Origin: an uncultured Verrucomicrobiales bacterium
GTDB lineage: Bacteria; Verrucomicrobiota; Verrucomicrobiia; Limisphaerales; UBA1100
Length of the DNA stretch: 48,834 nucleotides
Assembly (NCBI GenBank): GCA_913041895.1
Contig: CAJWKQ010000002.1
Coordinates: forward strand, 1 to 48,834
Direction: 5' to 3'
The notes below the pieces were generated by a model. The model searched no databases. It worked only from the letters and a program-made list of their open reading frames with translations, and had not been told where the DNA came from. Positions 5,731 through 27,199 of this stretch are shown piece by piece; within the stretch, counting starts at the first letter, position 1, and the number at the start of each line of letters is the position of its first letter. The position numbers and the translations under genes were made by a program.

Positions 5731-8699
5731 GCAGCTACCATCTTGGACTTTTTTGTATAAGATTTTACCTTGGGAAAAAATTTACGCAAAAACTCCCCGG
5801 TATAACTTGTTTTACACTGTACAATCTTCTCAGGAGGCCCTTCAGCAACCAACCTCCCTCCCCCGTCACCTCCATCAGGCCCTAAGTCAACTATCCAATC
5901 TGCACTTTTAATAACATCAAGATTGTGCTCAATCACGACAAGAGTGTTGCCTGCTTTGCGCAATTTTGCAAACACATCAAGCAAACGAGAAACATCATGA
6001 AAATGAAGCCCTGTCGTTGGCTCATCCATCAGGTATAATGTGTTTCCAGTTGACCGTTTACATAATTCAGAAGCCAACTTTACTCTCTGCGCCTCTCCTC
6101 CGCTAAGTGTTGTGGCAGATTGTCCAAGCTTTAGATAGCCCAAGCCCACTTCGGATAAGGTTAAGCAAACATCATGAATTTGCGGAATTGCCCTAAAGAA
6201 CGTACATGCATCATCGGCAGTCATATTCAATACATCCGAAATATTTAAGCCTTTATAATGTATTTCCAATGTTTCTCGATTATATCGATGACCTCCGCAA
6301 TCCTCACAATCTACATAAACGGACGGTAAAAAATGCATTTCAATTTTTAGCATCCCATCACCTTGGCACTTTTCACATCGACCACCCTTTACATTAAAGC
6401 TAAATCGGCCCGGGCCATAGGCTCTCACCTTTGCAGCGGGTAACTTTGCAAATAAATCACGGATGTGAGTAAACATACCTGTATAGGTGGCTGGATTGCT
6501 TCTGGGTGTGCGGCCAATGGGTGACTGGTCGATTACAATAGCTTTATCCAGTAAATCGGCACCATTAATTGCATCATGACGTCCAGGCTTATCCTTTGAT
6601 CCATGCCATTTTCTGTAAAGTGCCCGCTGGAGAACATCGTTAATCAAAGTGCTTTTCCCCGAACCGCTCACTCCAGTTACACAAGTAAGTGTGCCTAAAG
6701 GTATTTTTACATCGATTGACTGAAGATTATTTTCAGCCGCTCCTATTATCTCAAGCCAACCTTTCTCAGATGTACCATAGGCCCGGTTTTTTGGTACATC
6801 TATTTTAAACTCTCCGTTGAGATATTTTGCAGTTATAGACTTTTCTGAACTACAGACATCCTTCAATGAACCTGAAGCTACAAGTTCTCCGCCGTGGACT
6901 CCGGCCCCAGGTCCTAAGTCTATCAAGTAGTCAGCCGATCGGATTGTGTCCTCATCATGCTCAACTACTATAACAGTGTTTCCCAAATCTCGAAGTCCCT
7001 TAAGAGTATCCAACAGCCGGTCGTTATCCCGTTGATGTAATCCTATGCTTGGCTCATCCAGGATATATATTACACCAACTAAGCCAGCCCCTATTTGTGT
7101 TGCTAATCGGATTCTTTGCGCTTCACCTCCGCTTAAAGTGCCACTCTCACGATTCAAAGAAAGATACCCTAATCCAACATTGTTCAAAAACCCCAAACGT
7201 GAACGGATCTCCTTCAGCACCTCTCCTGCAATTTTTTGCTCAAGCTCCGTGAAAATCAATCCATCAAAAAACTGCATGGCTTCTTTTACTGATAACCGAC
7301 AGACTTCCATTACGGATAATCCAGGTACAGCAACCTTTCTTCGTTTACCCTTAATTGACGGCCTGATCTTATTGGCTCTTTTCCCACCAATGGTGCACGA
7401 TAAAACTTCAGGCCGTAAACGTTGCCCATTGCATGCGTCACACGGCTGACTACTCATGCAACTCTTCACACGTTTCTTGGTAAATTCGCTATCCGTTTCC
7501 TGCATTAAGCGTTCAAGATTAGGGATAACTCCTTCGAAAGGTTTTATTGTAGGCTTCCCATTCCTTCTAAAATTAAAGGTAATTTCCTCATCTCCTGATC
7601 CAAAAAGAATGACATTCCTAAACTCTTCCGGCAGATCGCACCATGGAGTATCTACCGATTGATCATAATGTGCTGCAACAGTCCTTATAACATGGTTGTA
7701 GTAGATAATCATACGCCTTCCTCCTCGGCGCCAGGGGGCAAGGGCCCCTTTCGATAGCGATTTGTCAGGATTTGGCACAACCAGTTCAGAATCAAAAACC
7801 AATTTTTGGCCCAGACCATGGCAAACAGGACAAGCTCCAAAAGGCGCATTAAATGAAAAATGCTTTGGAGTTAAAGTGTCATAGCTTTTGCCTGTTTTAG
7901 GAGAAACCATTTGCGATGAATGAAGTTCCTCACTCCATTGGTTCGATGTCTTTTGTGATTTCTCTTGAGTCAGCGCGATCAGGCGTCCTTTGCCCCACTT
8001 TAGCGCTGTTTCCACGGAATCAGCCAAGCGTTGTCGCATATCCGGATTTATAATCAAGCGGTCTACCACTGCGTCAATATAGTGTTTTTTCTTTGGATCG
8101 ATTTTTATACGTGTATCAACCTCCAGCTCTATTAACTCCCCATCCACTCTTGCCCGCACAAACCCCTCACGCGCCAATTTCTCGATGACATCGCGAAACT
8201 CCCCTTTCTGGTGATTAATAACCGGCGCCAAAAGCATCAGTCTTGTTCCTTCAGGCAGCTCAAGCAGGCGATCAATTATTTGTGTAGAAGTCTGGGAAGA
8301 CATCGGCTTACCGCTATCCGGGCAATGAGGCTGCCCAACATGTGCATAGAGCAGTCTGAGATAGTCATATATCTCGGTCGTAGTGGCGATGATGGAGCGC
8401 ATGCTTCCTCCCGCGCTTCGTTGTTCAATCGCAATTGTCGGTGAAAGCCCCTCAATGAATTCCACATCAGGTTTCTGCATTTGATCCAAAAACTGACGCG
8501 CATAAGCTGAGAGGGACTCTACGTACTTCCTTTGGCCCTCGGCGTATATTGTATCAAAAGCGAGTGATGACTTACCCGAACCGCTTAGCCCGGTGACAAC
8601 CACGAGTTGGTCACGAGGTATTGAGATCGATAGGTTTTTGAGATTATGCTCCTTTGCCCCCCCAATCCTGATCTCATTAACCGGCATGCTCTTTGCCAA
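5727..8699 (-). CDS. uvrA: excinuclease ABC subunit A (UvrA)
   Basis: 990 aa with two ABC modules: Walker [10 protein letters not shown] and GVSGSGKST, signatures LSGGEAQR twice, Walker B ILDEPS and LMDEPT. Zinc-finger cysteine pairs CPVCHGLG and CEKCQGDG. Confidence 0.97.
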
Positions 8700-8736
8700 G
8701 GATACCCGTAAACGGGAGAGTCGGCAATTCTATGAA

Positions 8737-11700
8737 TCAATACCCCATATCAATGGCATATCTGCTGATAACCCTCGGATAAGGCGAAGGCAAATCCTTT
8801 AGGGATCCATCAGCAGCCCTGTACTTCCCGTAATGGCCGCGTTTATATGATTCATGCCACTCGTCCGCTCCAATGAGATCAATAAGCACATGCTCAGCTG
8901 ACTGACCAATAACTTCATAATTATCAATCGTTCCATCTTCCCTCATTCCGGGTCTTCCCTCTGTGCCCGGAGGGTGAAAACGCCTTGCCGGCTTGAGTTG
9001 CTGAGTAAATACATAGGCTTGATACCGCTTCGGGCCGCCTGCCTTAAGCAGTGAAAGTATTTGCATGGGAATCCGTTCTATATCCAGCTCATCAACCCTA
9101 GGAATCAATGCATAATATTGCCCGAGAGTCCCTGCACCCACTATAGGCGGCAGATAGGGGGACTCATCTGTTAATTGAGGAGCAGCCAGAATATCTGTTG
9201 CCCGTTTAAATCGGCCTTTCTTCCTTTCATCTTCAACCCCAATCAGCAACTTTGAATTCCATGTGCTACCTTGAGCTATCTCACTGGTATCAATGAATCT
9301 AAAAGACCAGTTTGGATGGGTTACAGGATCCCTGTAAGCACCCAGTATGCGTTTAGGCGAATAGAGATTCCCAGCCTCGGCAGGCACGTAAGGGAAGGAT
9401 ACTCCATGCAGCACTCCGCTCCACGCTTCAGGTGTGCTATTATTGACTGACAAGCGGCCTCGTAATTTATTGCCACCTGACAAATAAAATGCCTCCAATA
9501 AACGCCGGTCATTAACCGGCTTGGTATCGGAGCTACCCGCCCAATCGGTCCATGATCTGGAATCAAGCAACAGCCCTGGCGTTAGGTAGAATCCGGCTCC
9601 TTCCTGATTGTATCCTTGAATCGCATAATCCCCTAAACTCGCATTCCACACTGTATACTGGTTGGGCCCCAAAACCTCCTTAACCGGCCACACTTCGGAA
9701 GTAAGACTGGGCACACTGGTCCAGGACTCCGGCTTTTCACCTGATAAACCAACTACATCACCCACATTTAGATTATGATCCTCAGCCGTTGTAATCACAC
9801 CTGTATCATCATTAATTCGCTGAATAGCAATTGACCCCGGATCCGCCTTCGATTTTAGGTATAAAGTCTGCCATGGAGTTCCACGATGAACCTGACCCAA
9901 CCATCCTACATTCTGTACACCCCCACGCATGGTATCAGGAAATTTCCACCCATTAATAGGGCTATATACGGGATAAACACCCGGATCTTTTATGTTCGGA
10001 TCATTCTTCCCGCCGGTATTGGTCCTGCCCCAAGGTTGATAGGCATCATTCAGCCTGCACAAATTCACGCCAAAATAATGCCGAGCCAGCCTGTAGAAGG
10101 GGGCTGGACTGCCAGGAGGTGGTGCAGCTTCCGGAGTGCTTGCGTTTGCCTGGAAAGAGCTCGCAGAATACATTTGTCTGAGAGGAATATGAGGATCAGG
10201 ATAAGGACTCCATAAAACCTTGGTCTCATTCATGTTGTTTACCGGATCTTCATCCAAGCTGCCTCCATAGATGTAACTAGGTGCATACACTTTTGTCTGC
10301 CAACCTCTTTCTGAACTGTTAACCAAGGGATCATTTACCTGACTGGAAAGATCAATCTTACGATATTTTCGTCCTTTTAAATAAACCCAATGATCCGGCC
10401 AATTCTCCGATTGGCCCGGGGTCACCACGCCTGAACCCCCTGATTTGAGCCGGTAATAATTATAATTATCGGGATCCAGCACAACCTGGCCTGCCGCGTA
10501 TCCTCCTGCATTGGTCGCATCCCAGACCGGGGCGAAGAGTTCATGATTGGTCATGGGATTAGCCAAACTGGCTGATGGCAAGGCTAGTGTACCATCAAAA
10601 AAATCAACAACCCTACCTCCTGCCCAGATTTGGGCCTTAAACGAAACCTGAATATTACTAAAGCGAATATCAGAAAGGGATTTTTTACTGCCGGGTGTTG
10701 CCCCATCAATCACACGTGCAATCTCAGCGAGCTGCTTATTATCCAATACTGCTGCAATATTCCCCGACCCGGCGTTAAGGTTTATTGCAGCTACTGCCCC
10801 GTTAAATACCACTGGAAACGGCGCCCCTTCCTCAGAGTTGATGCCATTGGAGTCTTTATATTCAGCCACGCCACTACCGCTCACGATTAAATTTTGAATC
10901 ACTAACTGGCAAGTGGGAAGCAACCCTGCTGGAGGCATATTCACTTCCATAGCCAATCGGCCTCTTACCTTATTATTAACGCGATCGTAGGTAAGTCTCA
11001 TGGAGACTTCATTAAGTGCGGGCATCCGGTTGTTGTAGCTCGCAACCGGATTCTCAGGGCCCCTATCCTTTACCCCTAATATCTTGGGTGCACCTCTGCG
11101 GTACCAACTAGTATTAGGTATATCGCCCGCGAACGTGATCTGCCTCTGAAGCCCGGTGAGATAAACGTTATTGATTTCATCCCGATCAAAAACCCCTTCA
11201 TACGCAGTTGGATACCGGTCAGCTCCATTAGCGGTATAGCTATCAACAGACCAGCCTGTTGGTAGCCCTGTAGATGGAATGGGCACTGGCGGATGGACGA
11301 GGGTAAAAAAGTACCCAGGCACCTGATATTGATGAGTCCACAATGCCGCCTGCCTTAGCTTGCCTGAGTTCTGTGTTATCCAAACAGCCTGCCCCAATTC
11401 AGGCCCCACTCTCAGTGGTGAGCTGTAATTAATTACCTCCTTATTATCCAGATAAACTTTAACAAAACGTCCGCTTTCCATTTCAATAGATAGATTCAAA
11501 CCCACCCAATATTTTTCAGAGCGTCCGGGTGAAAATCCGTTCTTCCATACCAGTTCCTCAATGTTCCATCTCCACGATCCTCCATTGTCTGGATACGCAC
11601 CCAACAGCTTCAACTTGTGCGGTGCTGACTGGGCAACACGCTGTTTCTCAAACCCGGCCCCTGTTCCTGAACTTTTTTCCAAAACGATTACGCCTTTGAC

Positions 11701-14457
11701 ATACCCTGTTGAATTAATGGTTTCGATATTCTGCTCCGGGGCACCCAAAGGCTCAAAAAATACACGGTAAGGCCCGTAGTCAATACCCGCCGGACCATTG
11801 GTGAGCTGCTGGCCATAAGTGTCCAATCTGCAGCGGATTTCAGCACTCACCCGACCATCCGCTGAAGGTTCACCAAAGGCCCAGTAGCCGCCGCCACCAT
11901 ACTGCCTGATAACATCCTTGCCCGTTAACTCGGTTTCCGGTGCTCCGGAATAGATATCCCCGATATTGGCTGCCACCTGCAGAATGCGTTCTGTTTCAGG
12001 TGTATAGGAACCCTTCCCGGGAAATGTTGAGGCCGAGCCGCGCCCCCAGGGAATTCCGCTCCCTGTCTTATGCCAAAGCCCCTTGGATGGGTGATGTGCG
12101 CCTATGCCGTAGATTAAAGGGAATGGACTGGCAGGATTCGGAACCGGTAAGGCAGCATCCCCCAGTTGATGAACCGCGCCCACCCCATCACCAACAGTAT
12201 CAACTGATTCATTCAACATGGCCGCTGCCATTTGTTCAACTGCATCAGTTAACCCATCAACCTTGAATTTATGCACTAGTTCCAGGGTATGGGTACCTGA
12301 ATTATTCAGCATCACCGGAACATTCACATAAGGTGACTCTGTATGCCTGAGCTTCCACCTAGTTGGCTCTGATGGATCTAATGGATCCACCATTTCCATT
12401 TTTTCCATTTTAAACACATGATCAAAGTGGACTTGCCCTCCCATGCTCCCGCCTGTTCCGGTCGCAAATTGTGCACTCGAACGAAAACGGACATGGTCGC
12501 CCGGTAACCACCTGTTAAAAACGGTATTTAAAAGGGTGAATTCCCCCGTTGAACTATCGTATTCGAATCGATCTTGTGAACCAAGTGGAGATGAAGCCAG
12601 CCCCCCCCTGATTCCAGGAGCAATCAAAGGAATAGCTTCATCCTTACCAATAAAGTGCACCCGGGATTGCTCATCCAGCCGGGCTGAACGATGCAGCGAA
12701 ACCATTGTGCTGTCCCAAACCTTTACATAGTAAGGAATGATGTCAGCCAGCATGGCTACCGGACGGTAAACCAGCTGGCATTTAACATTCGCCAGTGCAG
12801 CCGGCAAATCCTCCATGGGATCATTTGGAACTGTTAACTGCCGGACCCAACTGCCTGTGGCTGAATCATAAAAGCCCCAACAATATTCCACATTTTCGAT
12901 GGCAAGTTTTTTGAAATTAACATTGATGGCCGACTCGCCTCCATTTTTGAAAGAAAACTGGTGACGTGCCGGGGCAAGTGGAGAATCCAGAAAGACCGAC
13001 GGATGGGTCGCCCAATGGAAAGGCGAACCACCGGCGGCCGGCAAATATCGAATATATAACGAATCATTCCCGAACTGCGCTCTTGAAGAGATCGGGACCC
13101 AAGGTGCGCCGGTGTTGACTCTAACCAATATACGCCAATTGTCTGGCAAATCGGTTATCACCATTTTCACCGGGTCCTCCATTGAGTTCAATCGGTGCGG
13201 AGCACGGGTTTCAAAAGAGTCTCCCTGAATCAGCCCGATTAATCGTTCCTTAATCTGGTCTAGGCTGTGGATGTTTGGATTAATAAGGTCAAAATAGATC
13301 GGGTCCACGATATGTGGCGGCCGGATGTCGGGAACAATTTTATCACCATCCTTCAACCCGTGAGGGTGCAAAAATGAAATTGCAGACTTTCCATCGTAAG
13401 AAGACTTAACCGGATAACCATAACCGTAGGTTGATTCATCGCGTATACTGCTGATATCGAAGCCACCTTTTTCCTCGGGCAATTCAGCAGATGAGAAAGT
13501 GCCCATAAATTTGTAGTATCCATAGGGCTTCTGCCCGTTCCAGTGCGTCCTAAGCCATGTATTTAAAGAATATTCTCCGGATTTAAACTCAAGATCATTG
13601 AATGTGAGAAGTGATTCTGCCGCAGCCCTAGCCCGGGAATTGGGTGCAGCCCTGTTATTATTTAATACATCCTTAAAATCGAGGGAAGGCCGTCCATAAT
13701 TATAGGCATCACCCACCGCTGCACCCAGTTCGTACATGGACCAGGTAAACCTGTAGGGATTCCATTTATCTATACGTGAACCGAACAAATTCGGATGCAT
13801 CTGGAATAAGGGTGCCGCCAGATCTATACTGCGAGGGGTTTGTCCCTGACTACGATTATGGTCCCATGAGGCAGCTGAGTCGGCCCGATGATTATAGCGT
13901 ACATTCAATATCTCACTAACAGGAACGGTCATGTAAGCTACTCGCGCAATGAAAGAATTTCTGGGGCCATTCGGGTTGTCAGGGTCCAGTAGTTCGTTAG
14001 GATTTTTCGTAGGATCATCCAAAATACCAATCCATTCAGGGTCACCGATTTCCAGTTTGGAGAGATCTGAAGGCTGGAAGAACCGATCCTTTCCGGGAGG
14101 GTTATTAACTTCTGAGTTTAGGTTCAGATAGGTTGAGTTGAAATCCTGTTCTCCATTGCCGGTTGTATCGACATACACAGGCACAAATTCTTTAGTATCG
14201 GATCTTTGGGATACCCTGATTATGGGCGTTGCATTATCATCATTGGAAATGGAGTTAATTATACTTGTCCAGGAAACCGACTGACTATTCCCCTGAATAA
14301 AACTTACCTCGGTTCGTTTTAACGAAGCAGTCACCGATGCTCGTTCAAACCTCGCAAAACCTACAAATGCAACGACCAGGAATGTCACCATGGCCAGCAT
14401 AATCAAGGCCACGACCAACACCGCGCCTTGCTCAGTATTTTTCCATTTTACATTCAT
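8737..14457 (-). CDS. giant GspK/PilX-like minor pilin (1906 aa), probable tip adhesin
   Basis: The N-terminus [28 protein letters not shown] resembles the GspK/PilX_N anchor (QRG-[VA]-AL-hydrophobic helix, no Glu5). It is the last gene of a G-H-I-J-K-ordered pilin run. The remaining ~1850 aa matched no family I could recognise by eye. Confidence 0.6.
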
Positions 14458-14467
14458 TATTCACCCC

Positions 14468-15784
14468 CTAGTTTCGAATCCTTATCAATTGCTTGAAGAA
14501 ATAAACACGATCCAAGTTCTCATTTATTTTTTCTATCCGTTGCCTGCACCTCTCTGAGGCCAATCTCACCTCGCGTTGATATTTCTGCTGATGCGGAAGA
14601 TAGGTACCCGTAACATAAGATTCTTCCGCTGCGGAAAGCTGCAAAGCCTCAAGGTCCTGTTCCATTCCGTTTTCCACCTCCTTGAGTAATTTACGGTCTA
14701 ACACAGCAATCTCCACCGACACATGTGTCGGTAAACGGTTGCCCACAAATGGATTTTTGGAAGGAGTGTATTCATCCATTCCTCGATCAAAATTATTGGG
14801 ATCGGCTGCGCGCACCCTAAAATGAATGACCCCGTCAATGAGCCGTGAAAAGCCCATGGGTGCGTCAATCCCGCCTGAGTTCAATTTTGCCCAGTTTCCC
14901 ATATCATCACGCGGATCACCCCACGGTTTATGATCAGGATCATGGGGATCCACTAATTTCCGAGCCATATAATAATTCTTATCTTCGTGAAACAAGACCA
15001 TCGAACCCTTAGGCCAAGTTTTTAATTTATCCCATATCGGAGGCCGTTCTATTGACTGAAAATCTTCGTGTTCTGGGATATGATTCATAAGGCCGGCCTT
15101 GGAGGAAGGAGGCGAGCGATAAATCCAAAGGGCACCAACAGGCGAATCAATCAAATCCACACTGGTAATGCCAAGGGGGTCTGAAATTGGAGTAAAATAA
15201 CGTTCACGGGTGCCAAACTTGTAATGTACCAACCTCCATCCGTTTGCATCTTCAGTAAAAAAACGGCAGTTGTGATGGAAAAGTTCCAGACTTGATCCTG
15301 ATGGGAACTCGCTCGGGGCAGCCGGGACACCGCTATAGTTCACAAAACCATCGGGCTCCATTCTAAGAGTCGCATTCTCACCAACACGCACACCGCCGGC
15401 GGCTTCACGCGTGTTCTTGAAGGGCTTATCAATTAAGGTTTCATCAAATGGTGCCCCCGGATTAGGCGGCAAATAAACAAAAGCGCTAGTAACCGGATTC
15501 CGATCAATGAGATATTCAGGCACCCAACGCAGGTTGGGCTCAGTTCCTATTACAGTTCCCACCCGGCTAAGGCCTTGGAAATCTTCAACCAATATATCCA
15601 TCGCAGAACGCGATTCATCCATGGCAATTGCCCGGTTTTGGCCGGTAATAAATACCTTTTGCACCTTATCAAAGATGGAGTAGAGCATGATGATGAGAAC
15701 CAGCGCAATGGTCACTGCCCCCATGAGCTCCACCATGGTAAAGGCCCTTGTATTTTTCAGTCGATGGCACAGTAAAATATTCAC
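14468..15784 (-). CDS. prepilin-type N-terminal methylation domain protein, GspJ/PilW-like, expanded (438 aa)
   Basis: Leader plus mature N-terminus KNTRAFTMVELMGAVTIALVLIIMLYSIFDKV, followed by the AMDESRSAMDILVEDFQGL segment typical of GspJ/PilW. The start overlaps the upstream stop by 4 nt. Confidence 0.6.
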   Translation of the reverse strand: MNILLCHRLKNTRAFTMVELMGAVTIALVLIIMLYSIFDKVQKVFITGQNRAIAMDESRSAMDILVEDFQGLSRVGTVIGTEPNLRWVPEYLIDRNPVTSAFVYLPPNPGAPFDETLIDKPFKNTREAAGGVRVGENATLRMEPDGFVNYSGVPAAPSEFPSGSSLELFHHNCRFFTEDANGWRLVHYKFGTRERYFTPISDPLGITSVDLIDSPVGALWIYRSPPSSKAGLMNHIPEHEDFQSIERPPIWDKLKTWPKGSMVLFHEDKNYYMARKLVDPHDPDHKPWGDPRDDMGNWAKLNSGGIDAPMGFSRLIDGVIHFRVRAADPNNFDRGMDEYTPSKNPFVGNRLPTHVSVEIAVLDRKLLKEVENGMEQDLEALQLSAAEESYVTGTYLPHQQKYQREVRLASERCRQRIEKINENLDRVYFFKQLIRIRN

Positions 15785-17718
15785 TGGCTAACCCTCCATA
15801 GCCAAGGAACCATTACTTGTTTCAGTGGAGGCGTCGGATTACTGTAAGGCACCCAATTTCTCCTTGTTTCAAATGCTCCCCATATAGGTGTTAAGCTGGT
15901 GTAGCATTCTTTGTTAATTGACTTCTCATCCAAAGTGGCAGGCCTGTGAGCAGTCACCCTCAATCTTTTGGAGAGCATGAAATCACCCCCCACATGCTCC
16001 ACAAGAGCGGGGCGGGGCGGCTGGTTTTCCTCCACTGTTCGATCGAACTGATTATCAGGACTTGGGTTTGAAGGCTTATCCCATTCTCTTGTTCTGGCAT
16101 ATTGATCTAACAAGCCAGCCCAAGTCTGACCTTTACCTAAAAAACTGATTATATAATTGTCTTTCACACTCAGCGCAGCAGGCAAGTCCACAGCTTTGTA
16201 TAGTAAATACTCATCTCCTGATGTGGTTGCATTTTCCTTTCCAAACCAAGCCCGTTGGCGATACCGAGCGACCTTGCCCCCGGGCACCCAAGCGATTTGA
16301 AGTGGATCTGCTGCCCCATAAGGATACAGCCACATGCCTGAATGACCAATCGGAGTCACAATGTTTTCAGGCCCAAATCTACTCCATGACTGTAAAACTT
16401 CCGGGAGACTGATATTCCATTCATCAGGCCTGAAAAATGGATCCAGATCCTGATAATGATACTCCTTGTGGGCTTCCTCACGATCTTTGATCCCGATAGG
16501 TAATGGCATTGTCACATCGAAATCCCAATCACCTCCGGCTTTCCATATTTTTTTCGGCATGCCCACTAGATTTATCCGTCTGGGCCCGCCATACTTCTTG
16601 GGAGGTAGAACATTATCAACAAGCCAAGGATACCCATTATCGTCTTCAATTTTATCAAGCCCAGAATGGTAAGGATTGAAAAGCCCCTTTAACCTCGGGT
16701 CACCAGAGTCTATACGTTCACCCGGCCGAAGAACGCGCATCTCCTTCATAAATCGTCTTTCCTGAAGTGTAAGCATATCTTCAGTAAGTGCTTTCTCAAT
16801 TCGGCCGGGTTGCTTGATGGTGAAGCTTTTCTTCTTAAATTTGATAAATGAATCGGGCTCTTCTGACAGCGCAATAACATTCCTGATAAGATCGAATCTG
16901 TTTTTTGCATTCGGAATTGCAGCAGTTGGCTTGGGTTCCAGCATTTCCACCACCTCCTCAAGGAGCGGCCAATAAAATGTCATTTTGATGCTGCTACCCG
17001 CCTGCCCGTAGCCGATCCCCGTTTTTGGATCGTTGTTTTCAGGCTGCACCTGCAGAATGTAACCGGTGGAAAAATCGCGGTTCGGGAAATGGTACTCGTC
17101 GCTCTCAGGTTCTGCCCCATAAAAACGATCGAACAAGGCTCCATTCACTGCCCTGACCAGCACAAAATTGCCTTCTGAATCGCCCCACGGTTTATTTTTC
17201 TCATCAGGATCTGCAGGATCGATATCATTGAGTTTTAAAAGCCATCCCTGCACATCTGAAGACCAATATTTTTTAGCCTTAGCCAATGACAGACTATTGG
17301 CAGGAAAAGCACTCCAGGCCCGTGTTCCATTGAAATCCGTATAATCTAAAGGATAAGGCGTCGCACCGGGTGACGCAATATCCACGTAACTTACTATTTC
17401 GTTCGCACCCGGAACCAGGCGACCCCGACGAGGATTAATAAAAGTATGTGTAAACTTACCGCGTTGAACTTCCACCCGATCGACCCGTTCATTGATATCC
17501 TCCAGCAATAAACCATCTGAAAGCAATACTTCATGCCAGTACTGGGCTTCATAGCGAATAATGGTTTCCTCCTGATTATTCTTTTGTGCGGTCAATCCAA
17601 ATGGAAGAATGGAAAATACCCCGACCAAGCCCAGCGCTATAACCCCAATGGCCAAAGCAACTTCTGGCAGGGTAAAAGCCCGCTTTCTAAGTTTTCTGAA
17701 TAACGCTACAGTCATCAC
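15781..17718 (-). CDS. prepilin-type N-terminal methylation domain protein, GspI/PilV-like, expanded (645 aa)
   Basis: N-terminus RKRAFTLPEVALAIGVIALGLVGVFSILP resembles GspI/PilV (xFTLxEV...LGLxG). It overlaps both neighbours by 4 nt. Confidence 0.55.
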   Translation of the reverse strand: MMTVALFRKLRKRAFTLPEVALAIGVIALGLVGVFSILPFGLTAQKNNQEETIIRYEAQYWHEVLLSDGLLLEDINERVDRVEVQRGKFTHTFINPRRGRLVPGANEIVSYVDIASPGATPYPLDYTDFNGTRAWSAFPANSLSLAKAKKYWSSDVQGWLLKLNDIDPADPDEKNKPWGDSEGNFVLVRAVNGALFDRFYGAEPESDEYHFPNRDFSTGYILQVQPENNDPKTGIGYGQAGSSIKMTFYWPLLEEVVEMLEPKPTAAIPNAKNRFDLIRNVIALSEEPDSFIKFKKKSFTIKQPGRIEKALTEDMLTLQERRFMKEMRVLRPGERIDSGDPRLKGLFNPYHSGLDKIEDDNGYPWLVDNVLPPKKYGGPRRINLVGMPKKIWKAGGDWDFDVTMPLPIGIKDREEAHKEYHYQDLDPFFRPDEWNISLPEVLQSWSRFGPENIVTPIGHSGMWLYPYGAADPLQIAWVPGGKVARYRQRAWFGKENATTSGDEYLLYKAVDLPAALSVKDNYIISFLGKGQTWAGLLDQYARTREWDKPSNPSPDNQFDRTVEENQPPRPALVEHVGGDFMLSKRLRVTAHRPATLDEKSINKECYTSLTPIWGAFETRRNWVPYSNPTPPLKQVMVPWLWRVSQ

Positions 17719-18920
17719 TTGCTCCTGATATAAACTTTTAATGGTTTACCCTGAAGGGCTGGGGCTTGCCCCGCTAAGCGTTCAATCCTAGCCTTAAGCC
17801 TGAGGGCCGACTGCCGGTCCGGTATTTTTTTATAAGCCGGTTTCAGTTTATATGTATTGTCGAGAAACCAAGTAGTGCTGGGGAAAGATTTATCGGCTGC
17901 CACGCTCCAATCCGTACCCGGACCTTTCCAATTACTATCATATACCGCCCCCAGCTCATTAACCAAATTAACTATAGGCGGATGGCTCGTTATCGCATTT
18001 TCAAAATGAGGCGGATATATGGGTGAGGAATGGATAAAGAGCTGATATTGACTCTTTTGAAGATCCAGTCCCGCAGCAGCTTCCTCCTCAGACAACTCCT
18101 TAATCTCGGTACGACCAGTAACCCCATTAATGTGAAACCATTTTCTGTCATTTGAAGCAACCGCCTCAGGCGGGTCTCCTTTACCGGGAATATATGCATC
18201 AAATTGATTTTTTCCTGGAGGCAATACCCCACCCTTTCCCACCGAAAGAAATACTCCTTCAAGAACCCTTCCACCCAGATTCGATTCAAGTTCTCCACGT
18301 TTATTAAATTTTATACAGGGAAGCTCAAGGCCGACACGATCGGCAAAGGGCGGCCTGCTTCCCTTTAGATATTCTACAGGTACTCTCGCCAACCCATTTA
18401 ATTCAGACCGATTAAAATGATATCCAGCCGGCAGGGTCTTCCAGTCCGTCCACCATCTCGTTGACGGATTACCCGGCTGATCGGTTATTAAATACTCAGA
18501 ATAAATTGCGTAACTAGTCAACTGTGAGCCTAGAAGTGCGTTCACGCCTTTATCCTGTGAAAAATAAGCCCTCTTATTAGCATCACTGAATACAGTGCCA
18601 CCAACCACTGTATATCTTGGGGGTATTGGGGGTGTGCTGAGCGGGTCACCTGAGTTCGGATATATATCATCATAGAGCGGCATGAACACCATGTAGACTG
18701 GCACCCCTTTCTCCAACGCCATTTGACGCGCGCGGTTAAGATCTCCCACCACCTGAGTTCGCGCCATCCCATCACCGTCTCCGCCCAAAATTCCATCCAG
18801 CGAGGGAAGTGTGAGCCTCAGGATAATCAGCATGATCGCAACGACCCCCAACAATTCAACCAGAGTAAAGGCAGCACGCCTTCTATCTAGTTCAACCGTC
18901 TTCTGGCCATATAAATCCAT
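17715..18920 (-). CDS. prepilin-type N-terminal methylation domain protein, GspH/FimU-like, expanded (401 aa)
   Basis: N-terminus RRAAFTLVELLGVVAIMLIILRLTLPSL followed by VVGDLNRARQMALEKGVPVYMVF, the GspH/FimU-like pattern. It starts 1 nt after the upstream stop. Confidence 0.55.
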   Translation of the reverse strand: MDLYGQKTVELDRRRAAFTLVELLGVVAIMLIILRLTLPSLDGILGGDGDGMARTQVVGDLNRARQMALEKGVPVYMVFMPLYDDIYPNSGDPLSTPPIPPRYTVVGGTVFSDANKRAYFSQDKGVNALLGSQLTSYAIYSEYLITDQPGNPSTRWWTDWKTLPAGYHFNRSELNGLARVPVEYLKGSRPPFADRVGLELPCIKFNKRGELESNLGGRVLEGVFLSVGKGGVLPPGKNQFDAYIPGKGDPPEAVASNDRKWFHINGVTGRTEIKELSEEEAAAGLDLQKSQYQLFIHSSPIYPPHFENAITSHPPIVNLVNELGAVYDSNWKGPGTDWSVAADKSFPSTTWFLDNTYKLKPAYKKIPDRQSALRLKARIERLAGQAPALQGKPLKVYIRSK

Positions 18921-18921
18921 A

Positions 18922-19815
18922 TCAATCCCAGCTCTTTATGTTATCAATATCAGGGGTGTTTTTCGTATCATATTTGGTTTTTTCGTTATTAGGTACATTG
19001 CCGTAATTAACTCCCCTTGGATAACCCGCCATACCTTCAATTTCCCGATCCGGACCGGCAGTCCAAATCATAACATCTCCCTTGATAGCGCTATACTTTA
19101 TAATTCTCCCATTAAGCGAATGCCCGTTCCAATTAACTCGCGACTGATGAGGCGCAAGGCCTTCTTCGTTGAATTTCGAACCATAGTAATAATCGTAACA
19201 ATATCCATCCCGGTTCAGATCCATGGAAATTTTGAATTTGTTGCCGAATGGGTCACGGTAAATTCGAGCATCGGACACCCCCCCCCTTCTAAGCTGTCCA
19301 GCCGTGCCTTCCGGGCCCAGTTCTTTTGGTGCAAGATATACGTTCTTCTTAGGGTTTCGGGCCCCGTTTGGATTTGTACCATTAGGATTAGTATCATTCA
19401 TAAGGATGTACATGATGTCACTGTTGAAAGTTAACCTATTTCTCAGGTTAGGCAGAGCAGTAGCATCAAACCTCGGAAAAGTGACATTATAAATGGGATC
19501 TTTATTGTACATAGAATTGGGGTAACCAGCTGTTGAGTGATCGTTATTGTTAAAGATGTATCCTGAACTTGAATCACCAACCAAATTTCTCGGGTAATTA
19601 GCCGGAAGCGGAAATCGTTGATAGTCAGTCCTGTAGGCTTTAATCGCCGCATCCAAGTCTTTTATGCTAATACGGGCAGTGGCAACTTTGGCTTTTGTTT
19701 TAGACTTAGCAATCACCGGCAATAAAATACCGGCCAAAATAGCAACGATAGCGATAACCACTAAAAGCTCAACCAGCGTGAAGGCCCTTCTTGTAATTTC
19801 TATTTTCTCTTTCAT
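18922..19815 (-). CDS. GspG-like pseudopilin paralog with a large insertion (297 aa)
   Basis: N-terminus RRAFTLVELLVVIAIVAILAGILLPVIAKSK plus SIKDLDAAIKAYRTDYQRFP (GspG-like helix). C-terminal IWTAGPDREIEG resembles the GspG GxDG region. It contains a G9 homopolymer. Confidence 0.7.
   Translation of the reverse strand: MKEKIEITRRAFTLVELLVVIAIVAILAGILLPVIAKSKTKAKVATARISIKDLDAAIKAYRTDYQRFPLPANYPRNLVGDSSSGYIFNNNDHSTAGYPNSMYNKDPIYNVTFPRFDATALPNLRNRLTFNSDIMYILMNDTNPNGTNPNGARNPKKNVYLAPKELGPEGTAGQLRRGGVSDARIYRDPFGNKFKISMDLNRDGYCYDYYYGSKFNEEGLAPHQSRVNWNGHSLNGRIIKYSAIKGDVMIWTAGPDREIEGMAGYPRGVNYGNVPNNEKTKYDTKNTPDIDNIKSWD
19278..19286 (-). repeat. G9 (coding strand) homopolymer inside the GspG-like pilin gene
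   Basis: The plus strand reads ...acaCCCCCCCCCttc.... The coding strand AGA AGG GGG GGG GTG encodes RRGGV. Confidence 0.9.
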
Positions 19816-19825
19816 GTTTCTCCTC

Positions 19826-20422
19826 TTAATTTGACCAGTTTGAAATAACCTTTACGATATCATCACCGCCTCCGGCAACTCCATCATCCCCATAATCCCC
19901 GTATTCAACCCAAAGATCATACGAGTTCTTATTGTAAGTTGGGTTGTATGAATTGTAATGCCACTTGGTTAACTTCCCTCGCACAACATCTGGAGCCGAT
20001 GAAAGGAGAATCTCAGGGTTGTCATCATCACGCGGATCAGCTGTGCCATTATCATCCGTACTATTTCGACCATTTGGGAGAAATTGCCTGCCTTGACTTG
20101 GGCATAAATATTTATAAAGCCTGTTTGCCCAAGGCTTGCCAGTTGTATCCAGAGCCACAGCTTCATCCCATTCTTTCCTCGGATATTGAATTCCATCCCA
20201 CGATATACTTGGCGGAAACCCATTCTTCTCTGCCTTGTAGTTTTCCAGCGCCAATTCAATGCTCGCCATTTCCGTCATCAGCCTGGACTCGATCTGCTTG
20301 CTCTTTACCCGACCGTACAAACCCAGTGTCAATCCTGCCAGAATTCCGGCTATCACTATCACCACCAAAATTTCAGTCAGGGTAAACCCGCGCATATTAT
20401 TTTTTGTTTGAACCAGTTTCAT
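19826..20422 (-). CDS. gspG: major pseudopilin, GspG family
   Basis: Leader MKLVQTKNNMRG then FTLTEILVVIVIAGILAGLTL. It also has EMASIELALENYKAEKNGFPP and a C-terminal GDDGVAGGGDDIVKVISNW (classical GspG xDDIxNW ending). The ORF track extends to 20458, but that start overlaps brnA by 32 nt. The ATG at 20422 lies 4 nt after the brnA stop and gives a normal 12-residue leader. Confidence 0.8.
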   Translation of the reverse strand: MKLVQTKNNMRGFTLTEILVVIVIAGILAGLTLGLYGRVKSKQIESRLMTEMASIELALENYKAEKNGFPPSISWDGIQYPRKEWDEAVALDTTGKPWANRLYKYLCPSQGRQFLPNGRNSTDDNGTADPRDDDNPEILLSSAPDVVRGKLTKWHYNSYNPTYNKNSYDLWVEYGDYGDDGVAGGGDDIVKVISNWSN

Positions 20423-20426
20423 CAGA

Positions 20427-20696
20427 TTATTTTTTATTTTCTTCCTCCATTCGTTCACTTAACCACTGCTTGATCATGCTCTGGTAATTCAGGAAACGTG
20501 TTCGGGCAATCCATTTGATTTTAGACAACATGCGCGGATCCATGCGCAGGGTAATGGTTACCGAATCCTTGGAGGTTGGGCTGGCCATAACTGAATTTTC
20601 CATCAACCGCACGTCCAGTTGAGCCTCTTCCCAAAAAGCGGCCTCCTCTTTTTCCCCGGAAAACTCCGGAACTTCTTTCCAATCACTAACAATCAT
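20427..20696 (-). CDS. brnA: BrnA/CopG-family antitoxin (partner of the DUF497 toxin)
   Basis: 89 aa. EEAAFWEEAQL, then VTITLRMDPRMLSKIKWIARTRFLNYQSMIKQWLSERM matches the pattern I know for CopG-type antitoxins paired with BrnT (FWd...isiRl...lk.lA...g..YQtliK.wl.Erl). It overlaps the toxin gene by 4 nt. Confidence 0.7.
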   Translation of the reverse strand: MIVSDWKEVPEFSGEKEEAAFWEEAQLDVRLMENSVMASPTSKDSVTITLRMDPRMLSKIKWIARTRFLNYQSMIKQWLSERMEEENKK

Positions 20697-20995
20697 CCTG
20701 ATCCTCCATTATTGCTTAACAATCTATCCTGTTGGCGTTCGTAAAAGAACCCTTCCTCCGGCGTAAACAGCCGGGCACATACCACCTGAATCTGCCTGCC
20801 ATTTGCTCGGTACACCGCAAAAACACCCTCCCCAGAGGACGTTTTTCCAAAATTGAAATATCTGGCATTTACTGAAAAACGCGGGGCATCCGGTAAAAGC
20901 CTGACAGAAAACGGATCCTCGAAGGATTCCTCTATTTCACGCTGTTTCAAGGAACAACCAGGGAGGTCTGACCACTTATTCCAATCAAAATCCAT
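20693..20995 (-). CDS. brnT: BrnT (DUF497) family toxin
   Basis: 100 aa. FDWNKW...EIEESFEDPFSV...RYFNFGKTSSGEGVFAVYRANGRQIQVVCARLFTPEEGFFYE follows the DUF497/BrnT consensus layout (FeWD..K...H.vsfeEa.evF.DP.....R....G....g.ll.vv.t.r...iriIsAR.at..E...Y). Confidence 0.75.
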   Translation of the reverse strand: MDFDWNKWSDLPGCSLKQREIEESFEDPFSVRLLPDAPRFSVNARYFNFGKTSSGEGVFAVYRANGRQIQVVCARLFTPEEGFFYERQQDRLLSNNGGSG

Positions 20996-21004
20996 TCTTC
21001 AAAA

Positions 21005-21019
21005 CGTATGATTCATATG
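21005..21019. promoter_or_regulatory. imperfect palindrome CGTATGAtTCATATG just upstream of brnT, candidate antitoxin operator
   Basis: Read directly: 7-nt arms with one mismatch, centred about 17 nt upstream of the brnT ATG (20995). Ribbon-helix-helix antitoxins commonly autoregulate through such palindromes. Confidence 0.25.
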
Positions 21020-21108
21020 ACCATTCCAAGTCCCTACAAAGTATTTACATCCATTTTGGAAAAAAATCAACCTGTAGGAGTGTTTTTTCGGATAATTTTG
21101 TAATTAAA

Positions 21109-22371
21109 CTAAGATCCGAGCTTATCCATCATCTTGATAAGCGGTAGGAACATCGCGATAACGATACTGCCAACAATAACAGCTAGAAAACAAATCATCA
21201 CCGGCTCTAGAAGAGATGTAAGGGCACTAACGGCATTATCAACTTCCTCCTCATAAACATCAGCCACTTTCACTAACATTTCCGGCAAAGCGCCGGTTTC
21301 CTCTCCAATATCAATCATGCTCACAACCATGGGCGGAAAGATGCCAGAAGCTTCTAGAGGCTTGGTGATAGTTTCACCCTCTTTCACCGCGTCGTATACC
21401 TTGTCGATCGCGTTGGAAAGATGAACATTGCCAGCAGTCTCTTTAACAATACTCAAAGCCTGAAGAATGGGCACACCGGATGAAATGAGCGTACCCAGAG
21501 TACGAGCAAAGCGCGCGATCGCAACTTTTCTCACCAATGGCCCAAGAGCAGGCATCAGTAGTTTAAATTTATCCCACACCCATCTACCAGCCTTCGTTTT
21601 GCTAATAATTAGCTTGAATACAATGAAAAATGCGAAGGTTCCACCAAGAACCGCAATCACATTGTTCTTAATGGCATCTGAAATATTAAGCACCAGCATG
21701 GTAAACCCAGGAAGAGTTTCCCCATCACCCAACATATCGGCGAAAATAGCCTTAAACTTGGGAATAACAAAAGTCATCAAAACCCCAACAATAATAACTG
21801 CCACAATCATTACCGCAACAGGGTAGAACATTGCGGACTTAACCTTGCCCTTAATGGACTCAGCCTTCTCTTGGAACTCAGCCAGACGGTTCAGGGCAAT
21901 TTCGAGAACACCACCAATCTCTCCAGCCTTGACCATGTTGATATACAACTTATCAAAAATCTTGGGATGCTTGGCCAAAGCTTCTGAAAAGGTGGACCCT
22001 CCCCCAATTGTCTCGCCAATATCATTGATAATGCCCTTGAAATAGGCGTTTGGAATGGACTTGGAAAGCGTAGTCATACCGCGCATGAGCGGCAAACCCG
22101 CATCAATCAAAACCGCCAACTGGCGGGTAAACATACAAAGCTCTTTGGTGTTTACAATCGGTAATGCAAAACCGATATCACCCTTTTTCTTTCCTTTTTT
22201 CTCCTTGCGCTTCTTTGCTTCCTCAGGCGTATCCTTAACCTCAGCCACCTGGGTTGGATAGAAGCCCATTTCCTTGATCCGGGAAATTGCCTCATTCTGG
22301 CTACCCACCTCAAGAGTACCCTCCTTTTGCTTTCCATCCTTATCGATGGCAGTATAGCTGAAAAGCGGCAT
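21109..22371 (-). CDS. type IV pilus / T2SS platform protein (PilC/GspF family)
   Basis: 420 aa with a typical N-terminus FSYTAIDKDGKQKEGTLEVGSQNEAISRIKEMGFYP. Two T2SSF-like repeats (FTRQLAVLIDAGLPL and FARTLGTLISSGVPIL) and hydrophobic TM segments. Confidence 0.92.
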   Translation of the reverse strand: MPLFSYTAIDKDGKQKEGTLEVGSQNEAISRIKEMGFYPTQVAEVKDTPEEAKKRKEKKGKKKGDIGFALPIVNTKELCMFTRQLAVLIDAGLPLMRGMTTLSKSIPNAYFKGIINDIGETIGGGSTFSEALAKHPKIFDKLYINMVKAGEIGGVLEIALNRLAEFQEKAESIKGKVKSAMFYPVAVMIVAVIIVGVLMTFVIPKFKAIFADMLGDGETLPGFTMLVLNISDAIKNNVIAVLGGTFAFFIVFKLIISKTKAGRWVWDKFKLLMPALGPLVRKVAIARFARTLGTLISSGVPILQALSIVKETAGNVHLSNAIDKVYDAVKEGETITKPLEASGIFPPMVVSMIDIGEETGALPEMLVKVADVYEEEVDNAVSALTSLLEPVMICFLAVIVGSIVIAMFLPLIKMMDKLGS

Positions 22372-22374
22372 ATA

Positions 22375-24132: not shown

Positions 24133-24140
24133 GACTATAA

Positions 24141-25319
24141 TTATTCAGGTGGAGGAGGCGGAGGAGGCGCACCCTCAGCCCCAGGGGCTCCGGGCGGGGC
24201 TTCTCCTCGCTCGGCTGCTTCTGCCGCCTGTTGTTCATCATATTCTTTTAACCGCATCATCATCCCATTGTAATCTTGCGCTTTATCCTGACAATCTTCA
24301 CGACTAACCACCCCCTCCGCATACCTATTAAATAACCCATCATCAAGTGTGACCATCCCGTATTTCTGTCCTGTCTGTTGGTCAGAAGGTATACGAAAAG
24401 TCTTATTGTCACGAATAAGTGCAGCGATAGAGGGTGTATTAATCATGATATCATGAATCGCACACCTACCTTTCGGGATTCGCTTAACGAGAATCTGAGA
24501 AATCACCGCCTGCAAAACAGTCGAAAGCTGAATACGGATAGTCTCTTGCTGCTGCATGGGAAAAGCATTCACAATTCTGTCAACCGTTTTGGCGGCTCCC
24601 GTGGTGTGGAGTGTGCCGAAAACCAAGTGACCGGTCTCGGCTGCTGATACAGCCATTTCAATGGTTTCCAAGTCGCGCAGCTCACCTACAAGAATCACCT
24701 CTGGGTCCTGACGTAAGGCTCGTCTTAAAGCCTCCGCAAAACTTGGTACATCCTTATGGACTTCACGCTGAGTGGTGATTGCCTCCTTGTGAGGATGGTA
24801 AAATTCTATGGGATCCTCAATGGTAATAATGTGAGCATGATCCTGCTCCTCGTTAATGATATTAATCATCGAAGCGAGTGTAGTAGATTTTCCCGAACCG
24901 GTTGGTCCTGTCACCAGTATCATCCCACGAGGTGTGTTAAGCAGACGCATGATAAGCGTCTCATCAAGCCCGATCACATCTAATGGCAACAGCTCGTTAG
25001 GAATTTGCCTAAGAACAAGCGCCATATTACCTCGCTCCTTAAATGCAGAAACTCGGAAACGCGCCTTGGTACCGAATGCAAAGCCAAAATCCGCACCCCC
25101 CACTGTCCTGATATTTTGAACTTCATCATCGTTGGCAATTGCCTTCACCAGATATTCAACGTCTTCAGGCTCGCAATCTGGACCCTCAACCCGCTTCAAC
25201 GTACCCCCATCACGATATGCAGGAGGAATACCAACCCGCACATGTAAGTCAGCCGCACCCGAATCAACCATAAGGTTGAGTAAATCCGGCATTTTGTACA
25301 TTGGTTCTTTTTCTGGCAT
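24141..25319 (-). CDS. pilT: PilT-family retraction ATPase with a Pro-rich C-terminal tail
   Basis: 392 aa with no N-terminal GSPII_E_N domain. Motifs MVDSGAADLHV, Walker A GPTGSGKSTT, ILVGELRD, GHLVFGTLHTTGA, and IAALIRDNK (AIRNLIRE-like PilT motif). Tail ...AERGEAPPGAPGAEGAPPPPPPPE. Confidence 0.9.
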   Translation of the reverse strand: MPEKEPMYKMPDLLNLMVDSGAADLHVRVGIPPAYRDGGTLKRVEGPDCEPEDVEYLVKAIANDDEVQNIRTVGGADFGFAFGTKARFRVSAFKERGNMALVLRQIPNELLPLDVIGLDETLIMRLLNTPRGMILVTGPTGSGKSTTLASMINIINEEQDHAHIITIEDPIEFYHPHKEAITTQREVHKDVPSFAEALRRALRQDPEVILVGELRDLETIEMAVSAAETGHLVFGTLHTTGAAKTVDRIVNAFPMQQQETIRIQLSTVLQAVISQILVKRIPKGRCAIHDIMINTPSIAALIRDNKTFRIPSDQQTGQKYGMVTLDDGLFNRYAEGVVSREDCQDKAQDYNGMMMRLKEYDEQQAAEAAERGEAPPGAPGAEGAPPPPPPPE

Positions 25320-25329
25320 AAATATTTAT

Positions 25330-27057: not shown

Positions 27058-27199
27058 AAGCGACTAAGCTAAGACAATGTAGTGCCGTATTGGGGGTCGC
27101 GTCAAATCAGAGCTATACGCAATAACAGATATATATACCTAAGGTATCGAAGCCCTGAGATATTTCGAAATTCCCAATTAAAAGTTTAGCCAAAAAATT

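Follow-up and report, generated by a model that had tools for sequence, protein, structure and literature searches.

The window analysed in this work, i.e., the whole of a stretch of 48,834 nucleotides (nt) from an uncultured Verrucomicrobiales bacterium (contig CAJWKQ010000002.1 of assembly GCA_913041895.1), holds at positions 8737-20458 six consecutive pilin-type genes which, together with two small genes and a promoter at 20427-21072, we take to be a cassette for the subunits of a filament (Table 1). Their order seems to be that of the pseudopilins of type II secretion (G, a second G, H, I, J and K), the last of them encodes a giant protein of 1906 amino acids (aa), and a cluster of type IV filament motor genes precedes them. 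The feature is real, conserved and uncharacterised; it follows the same plan as the Verru_Chthon cassettes and the Gsp minor pseudopilins, and is best seen as an extreme variant of the modular-pilin or minor-pilin theme of type IV filaments.

Organisation of the cassette

The six open reading frames (ORFs) are tightly packed, being set apart, in gene order, by 10 nt, 1 nt, a 4-nt overlap, another 4-nt overlap and 10 nt, and their coordinates and lengths are exactly those given in an earlier note on this DNA. Sequence comparison indicates that they are genuine genes and not chance ORFs, since orthologues keep the same order in about 50 independent loci. The ORF of the first pilin is probably over-extended at its 5′ end: because the upstream 89-aa gene ends at 20427, the likely start is the ATG at 20422, which the stop of that gene abuts and which yields an N-terminus reading MKLVQTKNNMRGFTLTE.

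In the translations the five pilins begin, in order, with G↓FTLTE, A↓FTLVE, A↓FTLVE, A↓FTLPE and A↓FTMVE, and each of them carries a class III signal peptide of the type IV pilin/pseudopilin type. The Pfam model N_methyl (PF07963, gathering score 21.2 bits) is exceeded by the 210-, 297- and 401-aa proteins (29.9, 28.6 and 21.4 bits) and just missed by the 438- and 645-aa proteins (19.6 and 14.7 bits), in which the motifs A↓FTMVE and A↓FTLPE are visible, whilst the generic prepilin domain of NCBIfam (TIGR02532) is reached by the first two pilins only. The N-terminus of the giant reads EQG↓AVLVV, with Val, not Glu, at +5, and so resembles that of E. coli GspK (QRG↓VALLIVL); the giant therefore has the GspK/PilX type of N-terminal helix and lacks Glu5 as GspK does, as the earlier note had read it.

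Table 1. Features of the cassette and of the adjoining motor genes, with NCBIfam matches (bits, cut-off in brackets) and typical mature sizes of the counterparts outside the marine clade
Feature	Position	Strand	Length and remarks	Best NCBIfam match	Mature size outside marine clade
PilB/GspE-type assembly ATPase, paralogue 1	25330-27057	minus	575 aa; Pfam T2SSE and MshEN	TIGR02538 PilB 594, TIGR02533 GspE 543	
PilT-family retraction ATPase	24141-25319	minus	392 aa	TIGR01420 411.6 (319.1)	
PilB/GspE-type assembly ATPase, paralogue 2	22375-24132	minus	585 aa; Pfam T2SSE and MshEN	PilB 570, GspE 548	
PilC/GspF platform protein	21109-22371	minus	420 aa; Pfam T2SSF in two stretches	PilC and GspF, under cut-off	
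Putative promoter/operator element	21011-21072	minus	TTGATT 21070-21065, 17-nt spacer, TAAATA 21047-21042, conserved block ACTTTGTAGGGACTTGGAATGGTCATATGAAT		
BrnT-like small protein, first gene of cassette	20693-20995	minus	100 aa; Pfam BrnT_toxin PF04365 17.6 bits (gathering score 34.5)		
BrnA/CopG-type ribbon-helix-helix protein	20427-20696	minus	89 aa; Pfam CopG_antitoxin PF12441 47.7 bits (gathering score 28), full length		
GspG-like pilin 1	19826-20458	minus	210-aa ORF; probable true start 20422, ~198 aa	GspG TIGR01710 37.9 (88.85)	~200-240 aa
GspG-like pilin 2	18922-19815	minus	297 aa; GspG core with insertions	GspG TIGR01710 45.1 (88.85)	~250-265 aa
GspH-position minor pilin	17715-18920	minus	401 aa	Verru_Chthon D 29.2 (70), N-terminal 73 aa only	~235-260 aa
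GspI/PilV-position minor pilin	15781-17718	minus	645 aa; predicted pilin-like module of ~125 aa and ~500 extra residues	Verru_Chthon B 20.6 (51.4)	~220-280 aa
GspJ/PilW-position minor pilin	14468-15784	minus	438 aa	GspJ TIGR01711 17.6 (64.85), then Verru_Chthon C 16.9 (256.5)	~270-360 aa
GspK/PilX-position giant subunit	8737-14457	minus	1906 aa	Verru_Chthon A 11.5 (332.3), sole match, N-terminal	1190-1450 aa

Identity of the subunits

The G-G-H-I-J-K reading had been made by eye, and the hidden Markov model (HMM) matches of the N-terminal segments agree with it as far as these segments go; past the helices no GspH/I/J/K-like fold was recovered by Foldseek or by PDB profile searches, so that for these four the order is supported by N-terminal segments and gene position only. 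All NCBIfam matches of the cassette proteins of the window are confined to their N-terminal 30-90 residues, and none of the proteins reaches an equivalog or subfamily cut-off.

When the two G-like pilins are compared by hhalign with the five E. coli K-12 pseudopilins GspG-K, both of their families pair with GspG at 98.6% probability (over 84 aa in the case of the first). The 297-aa protein alone matches Pfam T2SSG (24.2 bits, the gathering score being 21), and in a PDB profile search its family matches GspG structures, including chains without the transmembrane segment, as well as major type IV pilins. Both families conserve the C-terminal motif of GspG type, in the form GPDG...NKDNILSW in pilin 2 and ...SYDLW...ISNW in pilin 1; thus the GspG-like ending attributed to the latter in the earlier note stands, whilst the literal DDIxxNW does not (the sequence reads DDIVKVISNW).

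At the H position, the 401-aa protein has no match to GspH (TIGR01708, cut-off 80 bits) at E ≤0.1, and the best of its relatives matches that model at E 5e-11, about 36 bits, over the N-terminus only. The 645-aa protein at the I position matches neither TIGR01707 (GspI) nor TIGR02523 (PilV). The 438-aa protein stays far below the GspJ cut-off (Table 1), and GspJ is the best hhalign partner of its family, at 91.9% over 64 N-terminal residues. The giant is below the cut-off of the GspK model NF037980 (130 bits) and shows no Pfam T2SSK alpha-domain. No protein of the window matches a PilY1 beta-propeller in Pfam, and the gene after that of the giant encodes UvrA, not PilY1.

The relatives repeat this pattern. 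Among 77 orthologues of the three minor pilins from related loci, 27 match Verru_Chthon D and 26 GspH, which fits there being 27 third pilins in the set (one of these, member 1, matches both); Verru_Chthon C is matched by 22 and GspJ by 16, and Verru_Chthon B by 19, with ten, two and one matches to PilV, XpsI and GspI, those to PilV and GspI being weak. Relatives of the giant match Verru_Chthon A (23 of 36), Pfam PilX_N (10), GspK (8) and ComGG (7).

An AlphaFold model of the 645-aa protein (predicted local distance difference test, pLDDT, 72; predicted template modelling score, pTM, 0.78) has a helix at 17-65 and four strands within 79-139, followed by about 500 residues in further domains, so that its N-terminal part is predicted to have a topology compatible with a pilin of about the size of GspI.

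The giant protein

The 1906-aa protein matches no Pfam family at E ≤0.1 and no sequence in the PDB, and belongs to a large family. A first search returned 23 homologues, all unnamed proteins of uncultured marine Verrucomicrobiota without a Pfam domain; in a scan that took a single genome from each GTDB species at least 537 relatives turned up, of which 80 loci, nearly all labelled Verrucomicrobiota, were kept, the matches in these mostly spanning 1150-1450 aa. A profile search with the family reached more than 344 clusters at 90% identity, and an exhaustive phmmer search with a single sequence 2051 clusters at 50% identity, among which 992 have E ≤1e-30. Invariant motifs of the family include GWLG(Q/R)VHRGTPWQT and WQ(A/V)NDPLV. 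As far as sequence comparison can tell, the family is thus a large and unannotated one in which only the N-terminus resembles GspK, PilX, ComGG or Verru_Chthon A.

In the marine clade to which the window belongs, the giants are enlarged to 1450-1900 aa. Aligned with a relative of 1187 aa (P0072), the giant of the window stays in register over its N-terminal ~250 and C-terminal ~170 residues, and the clade-specific insertions all lie between these (aa 252-697, 836-1081 and 1538-1633). Self-comparison revealed no internal repeats in the 1906 aa, other than two copies of H-x-L-x-x-G-D-x-V. CBM_5_12 modules are present in two of 36 relatives, which hints at ligand binding.

The AlphaFold2 model of P0072, built with 58 sequences, is a confident one (pLDDT 82.8, pTM 0.80); it starts with a 64-residue helix (7-70), a hairpin (148-173) and a helical region, continues with a large beta-sandwich region (537-722) and mixed domains, and ends in long strands (1123-1135, 1153-1168 and 1175-1184), the last of which stops three residues short of the C-terminus. 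Foldseek searches with this model found in the PDB generic beta-sandwich likeness at best (E 0.02; GH2, arrestin and factor XIII domains), without retrieving GspK, and nothing significant in BFVD (best E 0.056); as modelled, the ectodomain of the giant therefore has no recognised fold in either collection.

Conservation in related genomes

The order GspE, PilT, PilB, PilC, BrnT-like, BrnA-like, five pilins and giant is found in about 50 loci of Verrucomicrobiota, so the linkage of the cassette to its motor genes, on which the earlier note had built, is real and conserved in relatives; at least 11 loci have the small-gene pair and the pilins without adjacent motor genes. Equally real is the oversize of the subunits, which is already present in the basal version of the cassette and greatest in the marine clade of the window (Table 1).

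In 39 loci of sister clades a subtilase of 2200-3200 aa is encoded directly after the K-type gene (L025:14185-23250, L083:13821-21533, L058:14276-20998 and 36 others). It has an N-terminal membrane anchor and Peptidase_S8 and P_proprotein domains, plus PPC or Laminin_G_3, and its extreme C-terminus is conserved as ...(R/K)(F/Y)YR(L/V/I)xxVP. By tblastn, this gene is absent from the 48.8-kb window. By analogy with other systems, where the same position is held by pilY1 or mshQ, the sister-clade subtilase may be attached to the tip.

The small-gene pair and the putative promoter

The cassette opens with two genes absent from the list of the earlier note, a BrnT-like gene overlapped over 4 nt by a BrnA-like gene. 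The product of the second belongs to PF12441 over its full length, that of the first stays under the gathering score of PF04365, and PDB profile searches with the two families returned nothing. Across 31 loci the mean column identity is 69% for the BrnT-like protein, with an invariant EESFEDPF motif, and 55% for the BrnA-like one; with the pilins of related loci only 25-35% identical to those of the window, the pair is far better conserved than the genes that it precedes.

The gap of about 110 nt after pilC is conserved as well, and its alignment is nearly invariant across the marine clade. The 16-mer TGTAAATACWTTGTAG recurs exactly in 11 loci, two of them without upstream motor genes. In basal loci TTGACA is followed, after about 17 nt, by GTAAATACA.TGTATTCAC palindromes, the operator-like palindrome of these loci being ATGTAAATACA.TGTATTCACAT, and palindromic repeats lie over the −10 region of the cassette promoter in relatives. 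It was only through comparison of loci that this promoter was detected; consensus scans of 8000-27500 for promoters and terminators gave no enrichment over shuffled sequence.

Many basal loci have a GC-rich hairpin with a T-run directly after pilC and before the cassette promoter (e.g., L061:3557-3581 and L025:4799-4833), which implies that motor and pilin genes are transcribed as separate units; no comparably strong hairpin is seen in the window. Given the conserved promoter of the cassette itself and the terminator after pilC in many relatives, co-transcription with the motor genes, the lack of which the earlier note had named as refuting its reading, is doubtful. The layout of the promoter is that of autoregulated toxin-antitoxin operons, and from this the cassette would seem to be its own transcription unit under BrnA-type control.

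Taken together, the pair has the look of a toxin-antitoxin module that has been recruited for control of the cassette. It shares with the BrnT/BrnA type II modules the 4-nt gene overlap, a second protein that matches PF12441 over its full length, and a −10 region covered by palindromic repeats, a trait of toxin-antitoxin operons that regulate themselves. It differs from them in that its first protein misses the BrnT gathering score, and in that dozens of species have it in a fixed place, in front of the pilin genes, with identities of 50-97%, which speaks for a vertically inherited and integrated component and not for a mobile addiction module.

Motor genes and surroundings

That a PilT gene is in the locus, as the earlier note said, is confirmed by a TIGR01420 score well above the cut-off (Table 1), and the gene is 62-100% identical in the related loci that hold it (the matches of 35-37% in a few loci are to the PilB paralogue). 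The two PilB/GspE-type ATPases flank PilT, and the pair is conserved in relatives, as is the position of paralogue 1; both score slightly higher as PilB than as GspE, under the equivalog cut-offs. When paralogue 1 is used as tblastn query, the gene of paralogue 2 in related loci is matched at about 40% identity, and the two paralogues are thus probably about that similar to each other.

Downstream, the UvrA gene (990 aa) begins 37 nt past that of the giant, and 3049-8699 holds UvrA and then an 893-aa tetratricopeptide repeat (TPR) protein with weak matches of BamD, YbgF and PorW type; ThiC comes next. This UvrA-TPR-ThiC neighbourhood is conserved in the marine clade only. At 30484-37981 a bacterial alpha-2-macroglobulin (1745 aa, with MG and bait-region domains) adjoins a PBP1-type transglycosylase/transpeptidase with a weak, sub-threshold match to the tail domain BiPBP_C, neighbours that presumably recall a pairing described in other bacteria. 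Two adjacent minus-strand ORFs at 45728-48828 (513 and 520 aa) have no Pfam match. All ORFs of the window that were taken as genes are on the minus strand, except those at 28077-28883 and 39761-40393, and the GC skew is negative throughout (−0.04 to −0.22), which together fit a location on one replication arm.

Discussion

What is observed at this locus is a gene content with recognisable N-terminal classes, a very large protein family, conserved synteny, a conserved promoter element and a giant of no known fold. The interpretation that we favour, with moderate confidence, is that the cassette encodes a tip complex, an extreme case of modular pilins and probably an adhesin, that is borne by a retractile type IV filament conserved across Verrucomicrobiota. 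The two GspG-like pilins would build the fibre, whilst the minor pilins of the H, I, J and K positions would prime its assembly and end up at its tip. All four tip subunits would be modular pilins, i.e., an N-terminal anchor module of pilin type onto which large ectodomains have been grafted, the K subunit having, after its N-terminal helix, several ectodomain modules without a recognised fold and then a conserved C-terminal region of beta-strands. This last region may fold back and, in the manner of GspK and Tad CpaL, close the pilin sheet in cis. With about 3000 aa in all, such a tip could serve to bind ligands or to adhere, the PilB-type ATPases extending it and PilT retracting it. The cassette would probably be driven from its own sigma70-type promoter, the operator-like repeats of which are probably bound by the BrnA-type ribbon-helix-helix protein that it encodes.

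Two lines of published work bear on this interpretation. K-type subunits need a final beta-strand to license assembly, and this is provided in cis in GspK, Com and Tad CpaL, or in trans by PilY1, PilC or MshQ (PMC13533445). Modular pilins, in which functional modules are grafted on a pilin carrier, are widespread, the largest one surveyed having 860 aa (PMC8179133). The conserved N- and C-terminal blocks of the giant, the insertions between them and the strands at its extreme C-terminus fit, by analogy, a CpaL-style K carrier and adhesin in one chain; if the giant completes its sheet in cis, a separate adhesin of PilY1 type would be unnecessary.

Several known systems resemble the proposed machine in part. 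In Tad CpaL/TadG, Streptococcus sanguinis PilB/PilC, enterotoxigenic E. coli (ETEC) CofB and Thermus ComZ a pilin module bears a bulky module displayed at the tip (PMC13533445; PMC8179133), and CpaL's C-terminal extremity returns to the pilin sheet (PMC13533445). CpaL, however, has about 600 aa and the largest modular pilin of the 2021 survey 860 aa (PMC8179133), against 1906 aa here, where three or four subunits of one tip are enlarged and the ectodomain has neither a recognised domain nor a vWA. With fimU-pilV-pilW-pilX-pilY1 of type IVa pili and mshDOPQ of the mannose-sensitive haemagglutinin (MSHA) pilus the cassette would share four core minor pilins which start a PilT-retracted filament and sit at its tip; a very large protein tied to the K-type subunit is common to them, PilX_N and PilV matches occur in relatives, and the idea that the K subunit is completed by a C-terminal beta-strand may be applied here as well (PMC13533445). 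Unlike these systems, the cassette has no PilY1/MshQ homologue, its large mass being in the K-type subunit itself, and its major subunits are GspG-like, not PilA-like as in type IVa pili.

A number of results weigh against the interpretation. In the proteins at positions H, I, J and K, no HMM or fold search shows a pilin fold past the N-terminal helix: PDB profile searches with the 401- and 438-aa families matched the N-terminal helix only, the 645-aa family gave no GspI signal in hhalign (4%), GspK is the best but a weak partner of the giant family (22.9% over 22 residues), and Foldseek found no PDB pilin match to the model of the 645-aa protein (best E 0.5), small or discontinuous pilin modules within large models being hard to retrieve in this way. 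The structure results neither confirm nor exclude pilin folds, and it is only the predicted topology of secondary structures that fits. Furthermore, Pfam recognises no adhesin-type domain in the cassette proteins of the window; the ORFs of at least 100 aa in the window include no secretin, PilMNOP/GspCLM or prepilin peptidase, as the earlier note had remarked, two of these ORFs (45728-48828) having no Pfam match; a tip of about 370 kDa would have to pass through the outer membrane; and major subunits of GspG type without PilY1 look more like type II secretion than like a type IVa pilus.

This last point leads to the most probable alternative, which we nevertheless regard as unlikely, namely that the cassette forms a pseudopilus of the type II secretion kind, a short periplasmic piston whose enlarged tip docks and expels a very large cargo, with the subtilase of the sister clades as candidate. 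With the gspG-H-I-J-K genes of E. coli K-12 and the GspI-J-K tip of ETEC the cassette has several features in common: the gene order and tight packing are the same and, as in the E. coli gsp layout, PilY1 is missing; both major subunits are GspG-like, including the C-terminal GPDG...DNILSW; the J-position protein has GspJ as best partner; the K-position protein begins, without Glu5, with G↓V/A and hydrophobic residues; and the giant subtilase comes right after the K-type gene in the 39 related loci. However, the motor cluster includes a bona fide PilT, and we know of no classical type II secretion system with a retraction ATPase. The window contains no recognisable GspC, D, L or M, and no GspC, D, L, M or O is adjacent to the cassette, which has in addition two G-like genes, H, I, J and K subunits enlarged 2- to 6-fold, no Pfam T2SSK alpha-domain, and proteins that miss the curated GspG/H/J/K cut-offs and leave GspI unmatched. 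The clade of the window has kept and even enlarged the cassette with no subtilase within 48.8 kb, and the N-terminal membrane anchor of the subtilases is not an obvious form for a secreted cargo.

Less probable still is that the prepilin-type signals serve only for export and anchoring, the subunits forming a surface binding assembly like the archaeal bindosome and not the tip of a dynamic filament. That pilin likeness is restricted to N-terminal helices, that the ectodomains are very large for passage through a secretin, and that the ATPases weakly match the bindosome ATPase BasE would all agree with such an assembly. On the other hand, the scores for BasE (39-49 bits against a cut-off of 1000) amount to generic ATPase similarity, PilT is conserved in the locus, and a full set of G, G, H, I, J and K, with a K lacking Glu5, is the signature of a complex that primes filaments.

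The earlier note had also suggested that this may be one of the Verru_Chthon cassettes of NCBIfam/TIGRFAM (D, B, C and A, in gene order; TIGR02596, 02598, 02599 and 02600), which we now consider very improbable. Verru_Chthon D and B are the best NCBIfam matches of the 401- and 645-aa proteins, A is the sole match of the giant, C comes just under GspJ in the 438-aa protein, and the relatives repeat this pattern in the counts given above. In common with these families the cassette has the phylum, a very large protein coming after three that carry prepilin leaders, HMM matches that are the best or nearly so in the same gene order, and a function that is likewise undescribed, the literature search having found no paper. 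But all scores are far under the curated cut-offs (Table 1), the matches of the window proteins span only the N-terminal 30-73 residues of the models (the best E-value of a relative being 1e-11), and the Verru_Chthon A model, of 1296 positions, matches no giant ectodomain, even in relatives of 1200-1450 aa. Membership of the giant in Verru_Chthon A was rejected on the same ground, N-terminal matches alone being found in 12 and then in 36 relatives. The cassette here has, moreover, two G-like pilins, the BrnT/BrnA-like pair and, usually, adjacent motor genes, which set it apart from Verru_Chthon. Because none of its proteins reaches the curated cut-offs, the cassette is, on present sequence models, an analogue or sister of the Verru_Chthon and GspH/I/J/K families and not a member of them.

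Finally, a competence pilus taking up DNA with a DNA-binding tip, for which one could cite N-terminal matches to the ComGC, ComGD, ComGE and ComGG models and the UvrA gene directly downstream in the marine clade, is hardly credible, as these matches are weaker than those to Gsp and Verru_Chthon and limited to the helix, UvrA is adjacent in that one clade only, the window has no ComEA, ComEC or DprA, and Foldseek recognised no DNA-binding fold.

Returning to the adhesive tip on a retractile filament, its elements can be joined into a bolder picture which, taken whole, we think rather unlikely. The cassette would then represent a distinct, phylum-wide class of type IV filaments, with a tip made wholly of pilin-anchored giants, where the K ectodomain is a new fold that replaces PilY1 and a domesticated BrnT/BrnA module gates the genes of tip and fibre. 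In the sister clades this tip would present the subtilase of 2200-3200 aa by beta-strand addition of its ...FYRLxxVP end, making it a protease-bearing retractile pilus.

Literature searches brought up no publication on the cassette, the function of which the earlier note had called undescribed; searches on the Verru_Chthon cassette, on minor pilins of Verrucomicrobia, on subtilases with type IV pili and on BrnT/BrnA with pilins gave no relevant paper. In oceans, soils and guts Verrucomicrobiota are abundant and break down polysaccharides and particles, and to our knowledge their surface machinery is almost unstudied. With the cassette comes a very large protein family, of about 2000 clusters at 50% identity, at a position that would be the tip of a type IV filament. 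Should the giant act as an adhesin at the tip, modular pilins would reach more than double the largest size surveyed so far, and the giant would put to the test the model in which a C-terminal beta-strand licenses filament assembly. Two added features deserve attention, namely the BrnT/BrnA-like module with its promoter and the subtilase partner of the sister clades; the former, with a conserved toxin-antitoxin-like pair placed before structural genes in one operon, would offer an unusual and testable case of such a module being recruited for regulation.

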